From a virus (Duplodnaviria > Caudoviricetes): 34,661 nt of DNA. How positions within the stretch are numbered: position 1 is the first letter of the stretch; each line of letters opens with the position of its first letter. The position numbers and the translations under genes are program-made. The stretch covers positions 1 through 34,661 of the IMG/VR virus record IMGVR_UViG_3300048579_000438; one strand, 5' to 3'. Below the pieces are notes generated by a model. The model searched no databases, had not been told where the DNA came from, and saw only the letters and a program-made list of their open reading frames with translations. Below, piece after piece: positions 3,234-34,086 of the stretch.

Positions 3234-5270
3234 ATGATCAATTCAGGCGACATAGTAAATTATCAATCCAACATTTGGCTCTCACAGGAGTACATTCTGA
3301 AGCATTGCGGCATCAGTAACGAGTACCTTCGTGTAGCCAAAGCACGGGCAAAAAGCGGCAAAACGCAAAGCTGGCAGCACACACAAATACTTAACCGCTG
3401 CTATTTCAGTTATACCGCCTTGCCTCGCACAGCTGCCAACGGTCTGCCATCGCTCAACGAACTGATCAATAACGCTTCCGAAGTACACACCGATGTACGT
3501 ACCATCATTACCGCCGCAACAATCAGCCGCTACCGGTTTTACCTGTCAACTATGCCTGTCGAACTTGCAAAGGCCGCTGCCGTCATTCACGAAGCAAGTG
3601 TATTCTGCAAACAAAACGGCATAAGCTACAGCAAAAGCCCGTTTTTCGAACGCCTTGCTAACGAAATCGAGGTAAGTAAACTTCGGTACCTGCCCAAAAC
3701 ATGGCGCAACCTTCGCGATAAAATACGCGAATTCTCCGAAGGTACTCCAATGGTCGAGTTGGTATCAACCAAGAACGAAGGCAACCAGAACCGCGCTATT
3801 TTCGCCAACAACGAGCTTATTCAGGGGTGGCTGGTCGAGATGGCCGATTCACAAAAGAACTATTCTTACGCATTTATGTGGCGCAAAATACAAACCATTT
3901 GCGCTCAATATCAAATAACAAACGTACCGTCGCAACGTTGGGTATCCGACTTTCTGGCACAGCCAAAAACACAGTATCTCATCGAGCAACGCTACGGGGC
4001 CAATACTCGCTTTAACCACAAATACCGTGGGTACACGCCTACCGAATCAGCCTTATTTGCTGGCGACTGTTGGGACATCGACGGTACACGCGTGAACATC
4101 ATCGACCATCGCGGCTCATACATCGATAAATCTGGCCGCAAAGTCACCGGTCAGAAGTTCCTGTACATCATTGCTGTTCGAGATGTCATGTCGGGCATGG
4201 TGTTGGGTTACGAGTATTGCTACGAAGAGTCAGCCCAGGCCGTTATTAATGCCCTGGCAATGGCTGTCAACAACGCCGGTTACCTGCCTTACGAGTTACG
4301 ATACGACCGCTTTCCTGGTCACAATACAGCCGAATGGCAATACGTCGAATCGGCCATGCAGCGCATGGGTGTAATTACCACACAAACGGTTAAGGCTGAG
4401 GGTAAAGCACACATCGAGCGTTGGTGGGGTACGCTGCAATCTGTTTTTATGATGGATTCAGACTATTATTACGGCGAGGGTGTTAAATCAACACGCCGAT
4501 CGGCTCACCGCTCGAAAGAATACGTTTCGGCCATGCGCCAACAGGCCATGAAAGCCGGTTTCGATTTCGATGCAGCCACCCGTGAAACCGATCATATTTT
4601 AGAAGGTTACGTCAGTACACCGTTCTCTCGTTACTCACGTAAGTACGCCAAAATCGATAAAAGCCCGTTCCAGTTGCACGACGAAAGCGACAAACCCAAT
4701 GTTTTCGAAGTTGAAGAGCACACGCAGGCTTACCTGTTTGGCCTCCGGAAAGGCGTTGCAATCCGCAACAACATGATCCAGACGCAAATCGATAACGCCA
4801 CTTTCTATTACGGCATCGATGATGTTGAAGTGATCGAACGTTACACCGGCGTGAAGCTCACCAACTGTTTCGATGTGAATAACCTCGACCGCGTTCACCT
4901 GTACGACGGCGAAACATACCTGGGCACATTCTACCAGGTTACACCGGCACAACAGTACGGCCCCGATAAGGATATGCGCGCCGTTGGCAAACTGAAAGCA
5001 ATAGGTGAAGCGGTTAAAACTCACCGCAACTCCAAAAAATCAGAGCTAAACCGCACCAAAATCGAACTGGAGCAAGCCGCTGCCGAATTGATTGAAGATG
5101 ATTCTTCCTCCCTCCCCCTCGGGGAGGGTTGGGGTGGGGCTAATCCTGAAATCGGCATCCTTCAATCGGGCCGCATACGCAAACACGACTATGAAGCCTC
5201 CGAAACCGCCTTCCTTCGCGAAGAATGGGGCGACGAAGAGATCACTATCAATATAAGAAATCAGTATTAA
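3234..5270 (+). CDS. MuA-like DDE transposase
   Basis: 678 aa; catalytic-type motifs WDIDGT, YDRFPG, AHIERWWG; upstream of a MuB-like ATPase. Confidence 0.9.
   Translation: MINSGDIVNYQSNIWLSQEYILKHCGISNEYLRVAKARAKSGKTQSWQHTQILNRCYFSYTALPRTAANGLPSLNELINNASEVHTDVRTIITAATISRYRFYLSTMPVELAKAAAVIHEASVFCKQNGISYSKSPFFERLANEIEVSKLRYLPKTWRNLRDKIREFSEGTPMVELVSTKNEGNQNRAIFANNELIQGWLVEMADSQKNYSYAFMWRKIQTICAQYQITNVPSQRWVSDFLAQPKTQYLIEQRYGANTRFNHKYRGYTPTESALFAGDCWDIDGTRVNIIDHRGSYIDKSGRKVTGQKFLYIIAVRDVMSGMVLGYEYCYEESAQAVINALAMAVNNAGYLPYELRYDRFPGHNTAEWQYVESAMQRMGVITTQTVKAEGKAHIERWWGTLQSVFMMDSDYYYGEGVKSTRRSAHRSKEYVSAMRQQAMKAGFDFDAATRETDHILEGYVSTPFSRYSRKYAKIDKSPFQLHDESDKPNVFEVEEHTQAYLFGLRKGVAIRNNMIQTQIDNATFYYGIDDVEVIERYTGVKLTNCFDVNNLDRVHLYDGETYLGTFYQVTPAQQYGPDKDMRAVGKLKAIGEAVKTHRNSKKSELNRTKIELEQAAAELIEDDSSSLPLGEGWGGANPEIGILQSGRIRKHDYEASETAFLREEWGDEEITINIRNQY
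5107..5140. repeat. REP-like GC-rich palindrome in frame within the transposase
   Basis: CCCTCCCC-CTC-GGGGAGGG-TTGGGGTGGGGC, encoding SLPLGEGWGG. Confidence 0.65.
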
Positions 5271-5288: not shown

Positions 5289-5594
5289 ATGAAAACAATC
5301 GATCAGGCTTCAAAAGAAGCTTTTGAAAAAGAAGTAGAATTTTCCTTTCAAAGAGGTAATACAATTGGGTCTGGTGAAAGAATGTTTAAAGCAGGTGCTG
5401 AATTTGCTCAACGCTGGATTCCAGTCGAAGAAGAACTACCAGCAGAAACTGGTTGGGAAAAAGCACCATACATTGCTAGAACTAAAAAAGAAGATCACAT
5501 TGTTGGTTACACCGCAGGACGTTTTCACCACAAAGGTGGATTGTGCCTCAAAAGCGGATGCGTCACTTCTTGGCGCCCAATCGAACGTAAATAA
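5289..5594 (+). CDS. Hypothetical phage protein (DUF551-like WIPVEEELP motif)
   Basis: FKAGAEFAQRWIPVEEELP..VTSWRPIE. Confidence 0.7.
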   Translation: MKTIDQASKEAFEKEVEFSFQRGNTIGSGERMFKAGAEFAQRWIPVEEELPAETGWEKAPYIARTKKEDHIVGYTAGRFHHKGGLCLKSGCVTSWRPIERK

Positions 5595-5627
5595 ATCAGT
5601 ATTAAATACACTTTAAAACCTCTTTAA

Positions 5628-6557
5628 ATGCTCACAGCAACGCAAAAAAACGAAATCATGCAACTGGTCGAAGACGAAAAACTTCGCCTGGGCAGTTACC
5701 GCGCTGTGGCCGCAAAATGCAAAATCAGCGAGGCCACCATTTCTCAACTCCGCAAAGGAGTTTACGCCGCCGAGGGCGACGACATTTACACCACCATCGG
5801 CCTGGCACTGGGTTACGAGTTCGATTCATCGCGCTGGAACATTGCTGAAACAACCAATTTCCGCATTGTTACCGACGTGCTGAACGATGCCAAATCTGAA
5901 TCAATGTTTATGGGTATTGCCTATCCAGCCGGTTCGGGCAAATCAGCCGCCGCTTCAGTGTTTTTAGCCAATAACCGCCGTACCGGTGTATTCCTGCTTA
6001 CCTGTCGTGAGTGGAATGGCCGCGCCTTCTTAACCGAAATCATTCGCGAAATAGGTGCCGAAATGCCTCGCGGTTATGCTTCAGTAAATGCAATGATTAC
6101 AAGCATTTCCGAAACATTCAAACGCATGGCTCACCTCAAGCCCGAATTAATTCTCGACCAGGCAAACAGCCTTCGTTCATCATCGCTCCGGACGTTAATT
6201 CACTTATTCAACGAGTGCGAAGACATCCTGGGGCTGGTAATCATTGGTTCCGACAACCTCGAGCACGAAATCAAACGCGGTGTACGCCTCAATAAGCTCG
6301 GATACGACGAGATCGACAGCCGTTTTGGCCGCAAATACATTCACCTTATTGGTGCGACGCAGGCCGATGTTAGAAAAATATGCGAGGTAAATGGTATCAC
6401 CGACAAAGATACACAGGAGCGAATTTTTGCCGATTGTGAACCGATTAAGAAAGAACTGAAAGACTCCGACAATGTAAAATCAATACGTGTTGTCGAGGAC
6501 ATACGCCGCCTCAAAAGGCTTATTAAAAGCGAACGTATCAAACTCAAATACGCATGA
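5628..6557 (+). CDS. MuB-like transposition ATPase (N-terminal HTH plus AAA)
   Basis: HTH RAVAAKCKISEATISQL; Walker A PAGSGKS; ELILDQAN Walker B variant; follows MuA. Confidence 0.88.
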   Translation: MLTATQKNEIMQLVEDEKLRLGSYRAVAAKCKISEATISQLRKGVYAAEGDDIYTTIGLALGYEFDSSRWNIAETTNFRIVTDVLNDAKSESMFMGIAYPAGSGKSAAASVFLANNRRTGVFLLTCREWNGRAFLTEIIREIGAEMPRGYASVNAMITSISETFKRMAHLKPELILDQANSLRSSSLRTLIHLFNECEDILGLVIIGSDNLEHEIKRGVRLNKLGYDEIDSRFGRKYIHLIGATQADVRKICEVNGITDKDTQERIFADCEPIKKELKDSDNVKSIRVVEDIRRLKRLIKSERIKLKYA

Positions 6558-8576: not shown

Positions 8577-8648
8577 GCCCGGTTAGCTCAACGGCAGAGC
8601 ACTTTCCAGTTAAGTTAGAGGCAGGCGGTTCGATTCCGCTACCGGGCG
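8577..8648 (+). tRNA. Degenerate tRNA (Asn GTT-like) with a broken anticodon arm
   Basis: Acceptor GCCCGGT/ACCGGGC, D arm GCTC/GAGC and T arm GGCGG-TTCGATT-CCGCT intact; anticodon stem CTTTC/GTTAG has two mismatches; loop CAGTTAA has A33; G73; no CCA. Confidence 0.7.
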
Positions 8649-8688
8649 CAATGGCAATAATGCCAGACACTTTAAACTCATTTTAAAT

Positions 8689-12091: not shown

Positions 12092-15076
12092 TTAGATAGA
12101 ATCCAAATATGTTTTATGACGTTGTAATGCGTATTGAATTGCGGAAAATAAAGCATCTCCAAACTGGAGACCTCCAATTAATGACGGATGTAAATTATAA
12201 TTATTACCATCACTTTGATAAGTATATTCGCCCGGTATTCTTGATTTTCCCGTTATGTTATAGCCAATAACCCTATCCATAGAATAATGTGCTGGGCAAT
12301 AATAAACCCGTCCGTGCCCTGTCGAATTTTGTATAACCGTTTCAAATTGGGTTATTAATTCGGCATTCCATGTAATCCGGGTTGTTTTTGAAATCGAATC
12401 AATACCCATCGGAAAAATTGACGATATTAAAACAATTGCATCGGGATAATTTCGCCACAATTTTGAAATCAATGTGTTGATATTTGCAATGTATTGCGAC
12501 AATGTACAATATCCGGGGTCATTAGTTCCTAACACAATCATAAATGCATCGATTGTGTCAATTGGGTCTGATACATATCTGGACAATAAATTCAAATTGC
12601 TGATATAATTTACAAAATCAATGTCCGCTCCGCCCGGATATGCTGCATTCCAAAGAGGGTTATCACCATCCATGCTGTCTCCAATGTGCCGCCCGTTTGC
12701 AACAAAATGAGGGGTTGCCCAACCACTGTGCCCCTCGTCATAGATATTTCCTAATGAATTAATGTCGGGTTGTGGATTGTGGGTTTTATTTCCAATAAAT
12801 CGAATATCAGAACCTCCTGCGGTTTGTGCAATTTTAAAATTGTCCTGTATTGCTCGCATATAATAGCCCATTTCCATTATCGAATCACCGATAGGTAAAA
12901 TATTAAGACGGCTTTTTGTCATCAATATTTTTTTATCAATACATTTAATTGTAAACGATTTACTGTCAATCACATCTCCTGTTAATGTTTCTTGATATGC
13001 AGTTGCTGTATAATCCCCTAGTGTTGTTGCGTGGTAGAAATTAAACCTGTCTGACTTTTGCATTGCTTGTTGTGCGGTTGTTGCAATCATTCTTACACGT
13101 GTGTATTTTTCTTTATTATCTGTTATTGCACGCAACGAATTATTGTAAATATTCAATTCTAACCCAATGCATATAGGAACTATTGACGGCAAAATAATAT
13201 CCGCTTCTTTTGCAGATTTATTTAATACCATTAATGCGTCCGATGTTGAACTAAAACCGACGAAACACGTTGTTGCGCCCGCCGTCCATGTTCCGGTTTG
13301 GGTTGCACCCGTTCCATTTAATGAATTTGCAGAAATATAATTTAAATCTTTGTCAAATGCTGCGATTAATCCCATTCCCGCAACTCCTGCCAAAATATAA
13401 TTTATTATTTGCCCAGTTGCAACTTTGAATAAAGGCGTATGCCTTTGATATGTTGGGGCAATTGTTCCATTTGAAAAAAAATAATATCCCTCTGTATTAT
13501 AAGCACTTCCAATTTGCGAACTGTCCATTATTTCAAATAAGGACTTACGCAAATTTGCCGTTAATTTTGCGGGGGTAATAGAATTGTCGGGCAATAATAC
13601 ATTCCGTAACCCGGATATTGTCATTAATGAATCGTTATTTGCACAAAAACCGACGTAACACGTTGTTGCTCCCGCCGTCCATGTTCCGGTTTGGGTTGCA
13701 CCCGTTCCGATAAGCGAATTTTCTGAAATATAATTTAAATCTTTGTCAAATGCTGCGATAACCGATAATGCGCCGGATTGCCCCAATAGTGTGTAATCAA
13801 CTTTTTGACCAATTCCAATTTTAAATAATGGGGTCAATCTCATAAATCCGGTTACAATAACCCCACTTGGATTGTAATAACCAACCGTATTATAAGCACT
13901 TCCAATTTGCGAACTGTCCATTATTTCAAATAAGGACTTACGCAAATTTGCCGTTAATTTTGCGGGGGTAATAGAATTGTCGGGCAATAATACATTCCGT
14001 AACCCGGATATTGTCATTAATGAATCGTTATTTGCACAAAAACCGACGTAACACGTTGTTGCTCCCGCCGTCCATGTTCCGGTTTGGGTTGCACCCGTTC
14101 CGATAAGCGAATTTTCTGAAATATAATTTAAATCTTTGTCAAATGCTGCGATAACCGATAATGCGCCGGATTGCCCCAATAGTGTGTAATCAACTTTTTG
14201 ACCAATTCCAATTTTAAATAATGGGGTCAATCTCATAAATCCGGTTACAATAACCCCACTTGGATTGTAATAACCAACCGTATTATAAGCACTTCCAATT
14301 TGCGAACTGTCCATTATTTCAAATAAGGACTTACGCAAATTTGCCGTTAATTTTGCGGAAGTTATCAAATTGTCAGGCAAAGCATATAAGCTCATTTTTG
14401 CATCAGATTGAGCAGAAAACCCTACAAAACAAGTGCCGGCAGTAGCTTCCCACGTTCCGGTTTTTGTAGTTCCATCTGCAAGCAACGAATTTGCAGAAAC
14501 ATACGCTAAGTCTTTGTCAAACGCAGCGATTAAAGCTACGCCAGTTGGCCCATACAATGAATAATCAATCTTCTGGCCAATTCCAATTTTAAATAAAGGC
14601 GTATGACGATTATATGGATCAGTACTTACTGTTCCGCTTGTGGTATAGTAACCTGTTACATTATACCTGTTACTAATTTGAGACGAATCAAGCGTCTTAA
14701 AAATTTTTTCAACAGCCGATTTATCAGCCTTCTGGCTCAAATCCCCAATCTTACACACATACTCCCAGGCACTTCCCGTGTATCGGTAAACCTTACCCAT
14801 TTCTGTAGAATCCGCCTCATTCTGTATAGACACCAACTGTCCCGGTCGTATCTTTTCTCCGTCATCGCCTATGGGAGCAGCAACATCGGCATTCATGGCC
14901 GCAACGCTGGCATAAATCTTCCGTATCGTGAGGTTCGACATATTTAACTCCGCAGCTTGCTGCCGGTTCACCATCTCAGTCATTACACCAAAAACATCGG
15001 TTTTGCTGATCGAGTTCTTACCGGCTCTGCCGGTCAATTCAACTATCTTGTTTTTTATCTGATCGTAACTCCACAT
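12092..15076 (-). CDS. Tail fibre/receptor-binding protein with tandem domains and a C-terminal SGNH hydrolase
   Basis: Last gene of the baseplate cluster; four ~130-aa related modules; ILPIGDSI, GHSGW, LGTND, LHPS blocks. Confidence 0.75.
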   Translation of the reverse strand: MWSYDQIKNKIVELTGRAGKNSISKTDVFGVMTEMVNRQQAAELNMSNLTIRKIYASVAAMNADVAAPIGDDGEKIRPGQLVSIQNEADSTEMGKVYRYTGSAWEYVCKIGDLSQKADKSAVEKIFKTLDSSQISNRYNVTGYYTTSGTVSTDPYNRHTPLFKIGIGQKIDYSLYGPTGVALIAAFDKDLAYVSANSLLADGTTKTGTWEATAGTCFVGFSAQSDAKMSLYALPDNLITSAKLTANLRKSLFEIMDSSQIGSAYNTVGYYNPSGVIVTGFMRLTPLFKIGIGQKVDYTLLGQSGALSVIAAFDKDLNYISENSLIGTGATQTGTWTAGATTCYVGFCANNDSLMTISGLRNVLLPDNSITPAKLTANLRKSLFEIMDSSQIGSAYNTVGYYNPSGVIVTGFMRLTPLFKIGIGQKVDYTLLGQSGALSVIAAFDKDLNYISENSLIGTGATQTGTWTAGATTCYVGFCANNDSLMTISGLRNVLLPDNSITPAKLTANLRKSLFEIMDSSQIGSAYNTEGYYFFSNGTIAPTYQRHTPLFKVATGQIINYILAGVAGMGLIAAFDKDLNYISANSLNGTGATQTGTWTAGATTCFVGFSSTSDALMVLNKSAKEADIILPSIVPICIGLELNIYNNSLRAITDNKEKYTRVRMIATTAQQAMQKSDRFNFYHATTLGDYTATAYQETLTGDVIDSKSFTIKCIDKKILMTKSRLNILPIGDSIMEMGYYMRAIQDNFKIAQTAGGSDIRFIGNKTHNPQPDINSLGNIYDEGHSGWATPHFVANGRHIGDSMDGDNPLWNAAYPGGADIDFVNYISNLNLLSRYVSDPIDTIDAFMIVLGTNDPGYCTLSQYIANINTLISKLWRNYPDAIVLISSIFPMGIDSISKTTRITWNAELITQFETVIQNSTGHGRVYYCPAHYSMDRVIGYNITGKSRIPGEYTYQSDGNNYNLHPSLIGGLQFGDALFSAIQYALQRHKTYLDSI
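13494..14358. repeat. 393-bp tandem duplication (about 2.2 copies, identical by eye)
   Basis: AAGCACTTCCAATTTGCG recurs at 13501, 13894 and 14287; 131-aa unit repeated verbatim. Confidence 0.92.
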
Positions 15077-26675: not shown

Positions 26676-26800
26676 AATCCGTGCAATTCGTTTTAATTCG
26701 TGAAAATTGAACTTTTAAAATGCCGCCCTATCCTCACATTGGAAGCCTGGCAGTATAGGTTTTCGGGCGGCATCTTTCCCCTTTCTCTCACCAAAGTTTG

Positions 26801-26873
26801 TAGCGGGAGCCAGACTCGAACTAGCGACCTCGGGGGTATGAGCCCCGCGAGCTACCAACTGCTCTATCCCGCA
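26801..26873 (-). tRNA. tRNA-fMet (CAT), initiator type
   Basis: TGCGGGA TA GAGC AGTTGGTA GCTC G CGGGG CTCATAC CCCCG AGGTC GCTAG TTCGAGT CTGGC TCCCGCT A; 1:72 mismatch, A11:U24, G29-31:C39-41; CCA not encoded. Confidence 0.92.
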
Positions 26874-29544: not shown

Positions 29545-32148
29545 ATGGGCATTAAAGATTTTTTTGGACGTTCAAAAAGTACGGAAGTACCTAAAACCGA
29601 ACAGCCAACCAATGTGGCAACTGGTGTGACTAAAACCGATCTGGCCATTATCAACAAAATTGTTGGTGAGTTTAAAGACCGTTCGCGCAAACAAGTCCGC
29701 CAGTGGCGCGATGCTATGACCGCCACCGAAAGTATAGATAACCCGCGCTGGTATTTGTTGCAGGATATTTTTGATGACATGATTGATGCTCACCTGGCAT
29801 CAGTAATAGACACGCGCAAAATGTCAACAACTAATCACCGGTTTTATGTGGTTGACAAAAAGACAGGCGAACAGCTTGAGGAGCAAACCAACTTCCTGAA
29901 TAAAAAGTGGTTTTTCGACGCAATGGATTATGCGCTCGATTCCATCAATAAAAAATATACATACCTGCAATTTCTGCGCAACGGCGATTCAATTCAGGTA
30001 GTTTTTATACCACGACGGAACATTTGCCCACAAAACAACCGGTTATACACTGAGGTGAGTGGCGACAGGTACATTGATCTTTCACTTGAGAAAGATGTAA
30101 TTGGCATTATTCACCACTCCGACTTTGGCATTTTAAACGACGTTGTACCCAACTGGATTTGGAAGAAAAACGCACTCCAGGCATGGGCTGAGTTTGGCGA
30201 AAAGTTCGGAATGCCGCTGATAACAGCTACAACCGCCAATAAACAGGACATTGCACGTATCGAGACCATGCTCAAAAAAATGGGCGAAGCTGCTCAGGCT
30301 GTTTTACCAACTGGCACTACGGTCGATGTTCACGATCTGGCAAACCGTGGTAATGTAAAAGGTGTGTACGAAGGTCAGGCAGCATTCCATAACAATGAGA
30401 TTAGCAAACGCTTCCTCGGAGGTACAATGGTTTCTGATAACGGTAGCTCAAGAAGCCAGTCTGAAGTTCACGAGCGAACGCTCGATGATAAGATTGCCGT
30501 TGCTGATAAGCGTTTCTTTACGTTCATGGTCAACGATCAGTTGTTTCCGGTACTTCAATTGCTCGGTTTCCCGTTCGATAATACCAAAATGGCTTTTCAG
30601 TACGACGAAACTGAAAGCCTAAGCCTGAGCGAACACTGGAAGATCGTAAGCGATGCCGCTGAAAAGTTCGAGTTTGATGATAAAGGCGTTGAGTGGATCG
30701 CCAAAACTTTCAACATCCCTATCACTGGTGTAAAACAAAACGCCGCTCCTGCTAATCCTGGCCAGTCTTTTAATAATGCCACCACTACGCGGGCATTGGC
30801 GGTGGCTAATGGAATCGATCTGCCCGACTATTTTACACCGTCATTGCGAGCACAGCGAAGCAATCCGTCAGCCGCAACGTCCAATAAATCGCTACTCGAC
30901 GAACTCGACGTTTTCGATCAACAAATAGCCTCCTTTCTGTACAACGATAAAATAACTGAAGCCGATCGACAGCGGTTATTGAAGTCGAAACGTGTGGCTG
31001 AAGACATTCGCGACGGATTATTTTCTGGATGGGGTAACCGCCGCACAGAGATAAACTGGAACGCTCCGGATCACCGCGCACTGGCAGCAATGGAAATGAA
31101 CCTTTTCCGCTTTGCCGATGCCAAAACACGCGCTGAAGTTGTACTCATTAATGGTTTGCTGATTGACAAAGAAAAGAACGAAATCCGTTCTGAAGCTGAC
31201 TTCATTGCCCAAGCCAAAAAGGTCAACTCGCTGTTCAACGAGACGCACTTGAGTGTTGAGCGAAACTTTGCGATCGCAACCGGTCAAACATCGGCCCGTT
31301 GGTTTGAGTTTATGGGCGAAAAGAATACGGTTAAAACATGGCAGTACCAAACTGCCGGTGATGACCATGTTCGACCAGGACACGCCGCGCTCGATGGCCG
31401 TATATTTTATTTTGATGATGTCGAAGCCCGTCGCGTATGGCCACCAAACGGAATAGAATGCCGGTGCGAAGGCAACCAGCACTTAGGCAAACCAGGCAAA
31501 GAGCTGATGACAGGTAACGATGCTGTTCAGTTGGCGTTTGCATCAGCCAAAGAGCGCGAAATGTATGGCATTAACCGTGCCGATGCCGGTGTTGTATTCC
31601 AGCAAAACCAGATGTACCTCGGAACTCTGAAGGATGCTAAAGGCAAAAAGTCATTCGGCAAACCAATAAACGACTATACGTTTACCGACTATGGCCTCAA
31701 AAAATGGAAGGATATAGATGGTTTAACCGCGCTGAAGCTGGATAAAACAATCACGCCCGACAACGTTGGCGAACTGTTCAGTGATAACGCCGGTACCGGA
31801 AGTTACAAGGCTATGGGCTTCGATGACTACCTGAAGCGTAAGCTCATCATCAAGGAAAATACTTTTGCTCAGCATACCAAAGGCAAATATGTTACCGATA
31901 ATGAATTGCGTCATCAGTTATTCCCTCATATATCCGACGTGCTTACGTCGCCCGACGAAATGTACCTGCGCAACTATGCAAAAGGCGACAAAGAACAGTT
32001 ACGGTACATCAAGTTTTACAACGATCAGGTATTAACTGTCGATTGCGAAGTGACCAACGATGCGCTTGAGATTAAAACATGGTATCAACAGAAAGTTGAT
32101 GATTCGAAGTTGAGAACAGGAATGCTTATAAATGCAAAAAACGTTTGA
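29545..32148 (+). CDS. Portal (DUF935-like) fused to MuF and a PBECR2-like nuclease domain
   Basis: Portal motifs WAEFGEKFGMP, NNEISKRFLGGTM, SEVHE; MuF YQTAGDDHVRPGH..PPNGIECRC; C-terminal LFPHISDVLTSPDEMYL..RYIKFY..IKTWY. Confidence 0.82.
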   Translation: MGIKDFFGRSKSTEVPKTEQPTNVATGVTKTDLAIINKIVGEFKDRSRKQVRQWRDAMTATESIDNPRWYLLQDIFDDMIDAHLASVIDTRKMSTTNHRFYVVDKKTGEQLEEQTNFLNKKWFFDAMDYALDSINKKYTYLQFLRNGDSIQVVFIPRRNICPQNNRLYTEVSGDRYIDLSLEKDVIGIIHHSDFGILNDVVPNWIWKKNALQAWAEFGEKFGMPLITATTANKQDIARIETMLKKMGEAAQAVLPTGTTVDVHDLANRGNVKGVYEGQAAFHNNEISKRFLGGTMVSDNGSSRSQSEVHERTLDDKIAVADKRFFTFMVNDQLFPVLQLLGFPFDNTKMAFQYDETESLSLSEHWKIVSDAAEKFEFDDKGVEWIAKTFNIPITGVKQNAAPANPGQSFNNATTTRALAVANGIDLPDYFTPSLRAQRSNPSAATSNKSLLDELDVFDQQIASFLYNDKITEADRQRLLKSKRVAEDIRDGLFSGWGNRRTEINWNAPDHRALAAMEMNLFRFADAKTRAEVVLINGLLIDKEKNEIRSEADFIAQAKKVNSLFNETHLSVERNFAIATGQTSARWFEFMGEKNTVKTWQYQTAGDDHVRPGHAALDGRIFYFDDVEARRVWPPNGIECRCEGNQHLGKPGKELMTGNDAVQLAFASAKEREMYGINRADAGVVFQQNQMYLGTLKDAKGKKSFGKPINDYTFTDYGLKKWKDIDGLTALKLDKTITPDNVGELFSDNAGTGSYKAMGFDDYLKRKLIIKENTFAQHTKGKYVTDNELRHQLFPHISDVLTSPDEMYLRNYAKGDKEQLRYIKFYNDQVLTVDCEVTNDALEIKTWYQQKVDDSKLRTGMLINAKNV
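30839..30866. repeat. REP/RPE-like element in frame in the portal-MuF linker
   Basis: CGTCATTGCGAGCACAGCGAAGCAATCC, encoding SLRAQRSNP. Confidence 0.65.
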
Positions 32149-32243
32149 AGGTGTCCCGAAGTCCTGTAAAGGATATTGTGATCTCGAAGAGGTTGCTAAA
32201 AACAAGCATTAACCCCCGCTTCAAACCCTCAAACGTTTTTTAA
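32136..32243 (-). ncRNA. Candidate structured small RNA convergent on the nuclease domain
   Basis: 16-17 bp closing stem (32226-32241 with 32136-32151), internal hairpins, 3' U6 tract, upstream TATGTTTG -7 element at 32256-32249. Confidence 0.55.
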
Positions 32244-32268
32244 TAACACAAACATACAACTTTTTACA

Positions 32269-34086
32269 ATGGCAAACGGTGTATCAAAACTACAGTTACT
32301 TATCGATCTGAAAAACAAGTTAAAGCTTGGTTTAGATCAGGCCAAACAACAGGTATCAAAAGCAACCGGAGCCATGCAGGCTAAACTAGATGCTTTTAAG
32401 ACAAAGAACTTAGAGCTTTTTAATGCCATTGAGGAGCGCGTTCCTGGTGTAAGTAACGCATTGAGTATGCTCACCAATCCGTATGTACTTATTACCGTAG
32501 CTGCTTTAGCAGCGGGTGCAGCTATTTTCAAGTTCACTGCAATGGCTAATAAGTGGCACGAAGGTTTAGCTGAAATCAATGTTACAGCCGGTTTAACTCA
32601 AAAGGAACTTGGAGGCTTATCTGTTAAGCTGCTCGAAATTGGTGGCCGAAACGTCGCACCGCTCGAAGAAGTTCCCCAGGCATTCAACCGCATTATATCG
32701 GCAGGTCTCGATGTTAAAACGTCGCTTGACGCGCTCGAACCGACGCTACGCGCATCCAAAGCCGGTTTTGCTGACATCGAAACGACAGCAATGGCGGCTG
32801 TATCTGTTATGAACTCCTCTGGGCGCGATGTCAATTACGTTTACGATGTATTGTTTGAGACCGTCAAAGCAGGTAATGCCAATTTTAAGGAGATAGCGCA
32901 ATATCTTCCAAAGATTATTCCTATGGCCCGTAATGCTGGCTTTGCATTGGGAGAAACCGCGGCTGCTTTTGCTTTTTTAACAGCCCAGGGACAAACATCT
33001 GAACGAGCCACCACGCTTACACAGAATGCCATGAAGGCACTGGCCGATCCAGACCGAATTGCAGCTTTTAAAAAGATGGGCATTAACCTGTATGATGCTA
33101 AAGGAAAGATCAAACCGCTGATCGACATTATTGATTTGCTCAATAAAAAGACTGCCGGTCTATCCGATTTATCACGGGCCAATTTTTACGGTGCTTTAGG
33201 CATGGACAGTGAAGCTGCTTCATTTTTTGCAGCGTCGACACAAGATGCCGACAAACTTCGAAAGTATATCGATGAAGTAACCAATAGTCAGGGAGCTTTG
33301 GAACGCGCATATAAAGACTCACTTACACCATTGGAAAGCTGGCATATTGTTCAGAATGCGCTCAAGGTCGAAATGATTAAAATTGGTGAGATATTTCTGC
33401 CAATTATCAGTTCAATTGGTGAAAAAGTACTCGGAATTATCAACTATCTTAAAGAATTATGGCGCACAAATGAGCTTTTCAGGGATAGCATCAAGGCTCT
33501 TGGAGTTGCTTTTGTTGCAATTGGGCAAATATCATGGATGCCTCTAAAACTTTTTTGGAATTTGGCTAAAGGTATTTGGAGTGTAATTTGGGGCATTATA
33601 GACGGAATTGGTATCCTGATTGGTAAAATAACCGGTATAGAAGGCGGTTTTACTGGCCTGTACAATAAAATAAGGCCATACTTAATGTGGATTTACGACT
33701 TTATTAAGCAAATAGGAGGCATGATGTACGATGTTTTAACCCTCAATTTCAAGGGTGTTAAAGACAAATTAACAACGTTCAAAATGCCTGATTTAGCTGA
33801 AATAAAGCAACGGATCAAGGTGGAAACCGAAAGTTCAGGCGATTTTTCCGGGGTTCCCGTTAATGATCCTAACAAACCAGGCAAACCGACAAATCCAACG
33901 GCCAATACGGTACAATCAATTGCATCAGGCTCTCAAACAAAGAGCATTACTATCAATATCGATAGCATGATAAAGAACTTTAACCCAACCAATCAGGAAG
34001 TGAATGGAATGAGTAAAGATCAGCTTGAACGGTTCTTAACCGAAATGTTCCTGCGTGTCGTTAGGTCTGCTGAAACTACAATGTAA
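32269..34086 (+). CDS. Tail tape measure protein (TP901-type core)
   Basis: 605 aa, helical Ala/Leu-rich; D.LF.TV..G..F.EIA..L..I.P.A...G..L.ET.AA.A.LT..G. Confidence 0.88.
   Translation: MANGVSKLQLLIDLKNKLKLGLDQAKQQVSKATGAMQAKLDAFKTKNLELFNAIEERVPGVSNALSMLTNPYVLITVAALAAGAAIFKFTAMANKWHEGLAEINVTAGLTQKELGGLSVKLLEIGGRNVAPLEEVPQAFNRIISAGLDVKTSLDALEPTLRASKAGFADIETTAMAAVSVMNSSGRDVNYVYDVLFETVKAGNANFKEIAQYLPKIIPMARNAGFALGETAAAFAFLTAQGQTSERATTLTQNAMKALADPDRIAAFKKMGINLYDAKGKIKPLIDIIDLLNKKTAGLSDLSRANFYGALGMDSEAASFFAASTQDADKLRKYIDEVTNSQGALERAYKDSLTPLESWHIVQNALKVEMIKIGEIFLPIISSIGEKVLGIINYLKELWRTNELFRDSIKALGVAFVAIGQISWMPLKLFWNLAKGIWSVIWGIIDGIGILIGKITGIEGGFTGLYNKIRPYLMWIYDFIKQIGGMMYDVLTLNFKGVKDKLTTFKMPDLAEIKQRIKVETESSGDFSGVPVNDPNKPGKPTNPTANTVQSIASGSQTKSITINIDSMIKNFNPTNQEVNGMSKDQLERFLTEMFLRVVRSAETTM

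Follow-up and report, generated by a model that had tools for sequence, protein, structure and literature searches.

What stands in the place of an immunity gene behind the nuclease-tipped head protein of a Mu-like phage? To our knowledge, descriptions of polymorphic toxins mention immunity by proteins alone, and RNA antitoxins have been recognised for only a handful of toxin folds. The window analyzed here, the whole stretch of 34,661 nucleotides, is a provirus record of a Mu-like phage (IMGVR_UViG_3300048579_000438). A Pfam search finds genes including a transposase, an ATPase, a terminase and Clp, and the relatives of this phage lie in Bacteroidota. A preliminary description of the window proposed that a structured RNA, encoded opposite the end of the nuclease gene, replaces the missing immunity protein.

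A nuclease-tipped gene and the RNA unit that faces it

The locus comprises the following features.

29545..32148, plus strand: Portal-MuF-PBECR2 fusion gene, 867 aa (Pfam Portal_Mu 1e-58, Phage_Mu_F 3e-12, PBECR2 3e-11)
31819..32130, plus strand: PBECR2 domain, residues 759-862 (Pfam), with His777 (codon 31873), Arg789 (31909) and Thr845 (32077)
32136..32243, minus strand: structured RNA of ~108 nt, a predicted candidate antitoxin (z -4.86; 18/33 pairs compensatory; no Rfam match)
32249..32256, minus strand: Bacteroidota -7 promoter box TATGTTTG (antisense box in 76/79 His-intact loci vs 13-17% background)
32225..32241, minus strand: 5' strand of the closing stem P1 (7/15 pairs compensatory)
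32188..32217, minus strand: core hairpin with a 3-nt YAA bulge (outer pairs 6/6 compensatory, inner three pairs near-invariant)
32162..32173, minus strand: second hairpin, TCCT-loop-AGGA (3/4 pairs compensatory; varies between homologues)
32136..32152, minus strand: 3' strand of the closing stem and U6 tail, covering the last 13 nt of ORF 29545-32148
32269..34086, plus strand: tape-measure gene (PhageMin_Tail 1e-32), with the antisense promoter inside its 5' leader

The 867-aa product is a predicted virion protein with an RNase-like tip. The tip scores 43.9 bits against the PBECR2 profile (PF18810, cut-off 27.1), and His777 and Arg789 show no variation across 40 close homologues. Active PBECR domains carry a His and a Ser/Thr, according to the available portion of Iyer 2017 (PMC5512222, section 19), and the window's tip retains both, as His777 and Thr845. 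The closest folds to an AlphaFold model of the tip (pLDDT 94.8) are BECR RNases: CdiA-NC101 (Z 5.5, rmsd 3.4, 85 aligned), BrnT (5.1) and colicin D (4.6). These scores are middling, a Foldseek search with the model returns nothing at E<=0.001, and a PDB sequence search gives chance rows only; RNase activity is a prediction from the model. Elsewhere, the window carries tRNA-Asn(GTT) at 8577-8649 (plus strand) and tRNA-Met(CAT) at 26800-26873 (minus strand), which could, speculatively, offset a tRNase. At ~13530-14360, three near-identical stretches with 393-nt spacing lie within a 994-aa gene.

The gap between the fusion ORF and the tape-measure gene is 120 nt. The minus-strand promoter, the 17-bp closing stem with its U6 end and 13-nt overlap with the nuclease ORF, and the two inner hairpins are all found where the preliminary description had placed them. 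We take TAnnTTTG to be the Bacteroidota -7 promoter consensus; the RNA would start near 32243, and the 3' strand of the closing stem with its U6 tail presumably acts as the terminator. A sigma-70 promoter and terminator scan of the window finds no relevant promoter and no terminator, which is expected because the promoter is of another type and the stem is multibranched. Finer details of the description hold in part. The TTTG read as a -33 box does lie 16 nt from the -7 box, but it is not conserved, and TTTG at 19-21 nt occurs 42 times in 134 loci. The TTGAAG/CTTCGG extension of the stem is present but weakly kept (74% of cells paired, 1/4 pairs compensatory), and an alternative pairing (70%) rivals it. 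The TTCGAGA taken for a T-loop varies among homologues, is partly paired and forms no conserved loop; T-loop or tRNA mimicry was therefore dropped for the window RNA. What is conserved is a core, GGT-YAA-TGC-loop-GCA-ACC, and the bulged hairpin that contains it may be a protein-binding element. Rfam 15 has no family above the gathering threshold for the window or 11 related loci. The unit holds no ATG-started ORF, and hence not the small immunity ORF of MuF polymorphic toxins. A trans target inside the window was discarded, the longest complementary match beyond the locus being only 12 nt.

Covariation, strand and linkage to an intact nuclease

The minus strand folds at -35.1 kcal/mol, a value matched by 0/200 shuffles, and the plus strand is equally unusual (z -5.62), so folding alone cannot choose between the strands. 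Compensatory change affects 18 of the 33 pairs among 15 close homologues, a count reached by 0/500 shuffles, and sliding the pairing partners reduces pairing from 87% to ~50%; both controls are inflated, as the sequences are related and the structure was derived from them. The covarying stems are nested, two alternative pairings compete, and no H-type pseudoknot was counted. The preliminary description had used G:U pairs to assign the strand; the 15 homologues support the minus strand, with 70 G:U vs 9 A:C cells at paired positions, and promoter conservation agrees. We consider it highly improbable that the fold acts in cis within the late mRNA of the plus strand (as a terminator, a processing site or an autoregulatory cleavage site) with no separate RNA. 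The plus-strand fold is compatible with such an element, and the BECR RNase RegB cleaves phage mRNA according to the available part of PMC5512222, but the G:U bias and the strand-specific promoter argue for the minus strand, as do orphan copies that lack the operon and still have the promoter and the minus-strand orientation.

At greater distance, a similar bulged core is present in a Flavobacteriales group. For many distant PBECR2 RNAs, L023, L039, L082 and L141 among them, the fold is no better than that of shuffles, and many have different folds and no detectable model in common with the window RNA. A single core pattern fits only 20/79 PBECR2 RNAs, so a single RNA family for all of them is not shown. 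Model R1 (E<0.01, 157 sources) matches His-intact PBECR2 loci only, and most of these had been used to train it. We observe a two-module RNA of ~220 nt in PBECR2 phages from gut and mouth (L039:5475-5702; L035, L038, L046, L049, L054, L225, L226), of which L227 keeps only the first module.

To follow the unit across tips, we collected 223 loci, of which 197 have a MuF ORF and enough downstream DNA and 150 are non-redundant at 90% identity: 91 with PBECR2 (79 with the catalytic His intact, 12 without it), 37 with CdiA_C-like tips and 22 with other tips. Promoters were counted as strict TAnnTTTG boxes on the antisense strand, 30-260 nt past the MuF stop. Such boxes follow 76/79 His-intact PBECR2, 37/37 CdiA_C-like and 22/22 other tips, and 5/12 His-less ones, only three of the five lying in a gap. 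On the sense strand the corresponding counts are 7/79, 2/37, 1/22 and 0/12, and the background of the box in coding and shuffled sequence is 9-20%. A gap over 60 nt is found at 78/79 His-intact vs 3/12 His-less PBECR2 loci (Fisher p 3e-9 over loci that are not independent; the gaps of L028, L061 and L168 were set by hand, as next-gene prediction failed). The preliminary description had proposed testing for a conserved promoter and covarying structure that disappear when the nuclease domain is missing; both are indeed kept after His-intact PBECR2 and mostly absent after His-less tips. Gap-less loci are scattered over several parts of a quick tree and have His- and RNA-bearing sisters (e.g. L090, L140). 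In independent pairs taken from such quick trees, loss of the His and of the gap go the same way in 3-4 cases and the opposite way in none, which is not significant (sign test p 0.125-0.5). Exceptions run in both directions: L089 has the His and no gap, and L060, L062 and L155 lack the His and keep a gap with the promoter. No such promoter-RNA unit is seen at tip-less MuF genes (FPSV-S1, the G574 prophage) or in Peternella, whose tip looks degenerate.

Any RNA whose role depends on an active nuclease could be expected to disappear along with the catalytic His, and antisense or cofactor roles therefore fit the co-loss too. RNA similarity follows that of the nuclease (partial rho 0.19) not clearly above linkage, as given by MuF (0.17) and the next gene (0.13; 45 loci), and we do not claim coevolution. 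A short-motif scan of viral contigs gave mostly chance matches (80/120 loci tested; one strong match, already known) and was discarded.

In our judgment a type I-like, antisense role is unlikely, whether through base pairing of the RNA with leaky late mRNA between the two genes or through silencing of that mRNA by convergent transcription. The preliminary description had judged type I action less likely because of the 13-nt overlap, and that argument is incomplete: along its entire length the RNA is antisense to the intergenic region of what is presumably a late polycistronic transcript, and its complementarity takes in the full 120-nt gap as well as 13 nt of the ORF. The complementarity covers the 3' gap and the ORF end, not the toxin start, and what is conserved is structure, not sequence. 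Better arguments against pairing are that the structure covaries while the sequence drifts, that the fold depends on the toxin family, that GNAT and papain tips have proteins in the same place, and that diverged, nuclease-free copies survive in arrays away from any target.

Other occupants of the slot and copies away from the nuclease

The CdiA_C-like loci have a different RNA, a hairpin of ~25 nt with a 1x1 loop before the terminator, found in 26/36 units vs 9% of shuffles. It is a second uncatalogued RNA family and looks like a tRNA minihelix mimic. The hairpin often has a UGCG loop and a CCC(A) tail (L005, L008, L009, L088, L100, L174, L193 and others; L233). The four GNAT loci (L107, L110, L114, L215) all have convergent acidic ORFs of 48-69 aa, candidate protein antitoxins; ORFs of at least 35 aa occupy the slot at 8/79 PBECR2 loci and 1/36 CdiA_C units vs 4/4 GNAT loci. 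Among the unclassified tips, the slot RNA of L219 includes a canonical T-arm (GGTTCGAATCC) after position 4534 on the minus strand, and L112 repeats similar stem-loop units after position 4558, also on the minus strand.

Hankyphage p00 has a MuF gene with a papain-fold tip, the same convergent promoter and then a small ORF, hp22 (L231:11572-11841). Published RNA-seq (PMC12135933, supplements 6, 9 and 13) ranks hp22 first among the prophage genes in the control lysogen at 6 h, with 1452-1779 normalised reads against ~345 for the next prophage gene and 1-2 for MuF; virion mass spectrometry in the same supplements lists MuF and not hp22. The hp22 product is a candidate immunity protein for the papain-fold tip, and small ORFs after papain-type MuF tips are proposed immunity proteins in the available part of PMC11699363 (section 7). 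By analogy, the slot after the MuF tip would behave as an immunity slot; hankyphage has a protein in the slot and a different toxin domain, and its evidence bears on the RNA as an analogy, not a test. For the RNA slot itself, contigs of RNA-labelled wastewater runs cover that of homologue L039 at 5477-5677 (X8, depth 14) and 5540-5691 (X9, depth 30), and at depth 2-4 in X5, X10 and X11. These contigs (6/11 runs, all contigs) have neither strand nor ends and come from runs picked for holding this stretch, and are a weak sign of slot transcription; run X1 behaves like DNA. The missing cover beyond the slot in X5, X8, X9 and X11 (8.4 kb) and X10 (2.4 kb) is not evidence, the runs being slot-selected, and two contig ends at the predicted start (5703, 5704) are loose ends.

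Cassettes and orphans are a further source of evidence. L120, L152 and L157 each have two promoter-RNA units with a leftover PBECR2 C-terminus between them, the pattern that joint replacement of tip and RNA would leave. Genome searches starting from the RNA covered overlapping sets of 151, 151, 6, 8, 151 and 151 genomes. In six genomes RNA copies have a promoter and the PBECR2 profile finds nothing (positive controls run); only G573 looks near complete, and nuclease absence in the other five, which may be incomplete, is provisional. G574 has three different RNA units behind one promoter (L368:10348-10661) amid what by inspection are host genes, icd, modABC and dinB, and G774 an array of two different units with one promoter (L382:1501-1704). 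Each array unit best matches a different prophage variant, unit 1 of G574 being the closest array unit to the window's RNA. G709, G710 and G416 have one RNA copy each. G573 contains, in two copies (L369, L370), a transposable phage element with a reduced gene set (transposase, Clp, capsid-like). The element, possibly a satellite, retains the RNA and has neither portal nor nuclease. Matches in G857 and G755 and a second match in G707 (E about 1e-3 to 1e-4) resemble terminators and were discarded.

Two further explanations can be weighed against these data. The RNA might serve the nuclease as cofactor, guide or dedicated substrate, packed in the virion as an RNP effector, and not inhibit it. Cognate linkage, cassette exchange and co-loss are equally compatible with this, but the RNA has no variable spacer except a 4-9 nt loop, is made from its own convergent promoter and would bring no gain to nuclease-free hosts, and protein-filled slots resemble immunity in the available part of PMC11699363 (section 7); we regard such a role as quite unlikely. 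It is very unlikely, in our view, that the RNA serves as a decoy for some protein of host defence or as a trans regulator, the slot being merely a site for lysogen-expressed cargo. Lysogen expression in hankyphage, the nuclease-free copies, including the G573 element, and the weak coevolution signal are in keeping with it, but the content of the slot follows the tip family and the His, and the tip-less MuF loci of FPSV-S1 and the G574 prophage are without the unit.

A candidate antidote to a putative virion-borne toxin

The RNA genes tied to MuF nuclease tips are a real, uncatalogued family. We favour the reading that the RNA is a lysogen-made antitoxin binding the predicted RNase tip of the phage head protein, as the preliminary description suggested; it is probable on comparative grounds, namely the His-linked RNA, the protein-filled slot of non-nuclease toxins and the lysogen-expressed slot of hankyphage. 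From a housekeeping-type promoter, the lysogen would produce the RNA at a time when the late operon is silent, and the bulged core hairpin would bind the RNase, probably as a substrate decoy. The RNA would shield the host both from leaky or lytic synthesis and from the nuclease of incoming related virions. Tip and RNA would be swapped together as a cassette, and hosts and defective elements may retain orphan RNAs as a form of acquired immunity, sometimes with several variants sharing a promoter.

The locus shares with MuF polymorphic toxins a MuF protein of a temperate phage that ends in a variable, predicted toxin domain, with PBECR2, CdiA_C, LPD3 and GNAT tips on one scaffold. As far as the available parts of Jamet 2017 (PMC5576092) and the Bxa/Bsi paper (PMC11699363) go, those toxins likewise have a variable tip on a temperate-phage head protein and an immunity slot straight after the toxin, papain and deamidase tips occurring in the same phage group; there the immunity is protein and small ORFs are mentioned, whereas the nuclease-tip slot here has a convergent structured RNA with its own promoter. 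Iyer 2017 (PMC5512222) describes Portal/MuF-PBECR fusions with His and Ser/Thr and notes inactive versions, and its available text proposes no RNA partner or antitoxin. The preliminary description invoked type III toxin-antitoxin systems, whose mechanism would fit but to whose family the locus does not belong. In the accessible text of PMC5086642, type III antitoxins lie upstream and are co-transcribed with a terminator between. ToxIN, CptIN and TenpIN likewise pair a predicted RNase with a cognate structured RNA, and have variant-specific RNAs and tandem orphan units; here the RNA is downstream on the opposite strand, not bicistronic upstream, the window has a single unit, tandem ones being confined to orphans and cassette remnants, and the BECR-fold toxin is fused to a virion protein, matching PBECR2 only in Pfam, with CdiA, BrnT and colicin D, not ToxN, as nearest folds. 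AvcID and AbiF, in the partial accounts available, also have a protein toxin under the control of a non-repeat RNA, but differ in toxin fold and in serving anti-phage defence rather than as virion cargo.

Displaced tips and collected immunity genes have protein counterparts. CDI and Rhs systems have orphan modules of toxin tip and immunity, and Bacteroidales have acquired interbacterial defence arrays; both resemble our loci in displaced tip remnants with an immunity gene and hosts collecting orphan immunity genes, and differ in that our units consist of RNA and the threat would come from phages. We found no description of these RNAs in the open-access literature searched, though the candidate-RNA supplements of PMC10690425 might list them; the available parts of two related-phage papers (PMC10367356, PMC7761591) make no mention of them.

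If the antitoxin reading is true, RNA would join proteins as a means of immunity, here to the BECR and CdiA-type nucleases of widespread Bacteroidota phages from gut, oral, rumen and aquatic settings, and the apparent lack of immunity genes for these toxins would be explained. PBECR domains would become clonable and testable, with natural RNA inhibitors down to ~25 nt. More tentatively, and with somewhat less than even confidence, we suggest that Mu-like Bacteroidota phages may carry swappable nuclease warheads in their heads, each with its own small-RNA antidote from several unrelated families, some tRNA-like, and that bacteria may line up captured variants under a single promoter, building a growing, purely RNA-based immunity array against toxins that phages deliver. 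The orphan arrays hint at an unrecognised layer of host defence.
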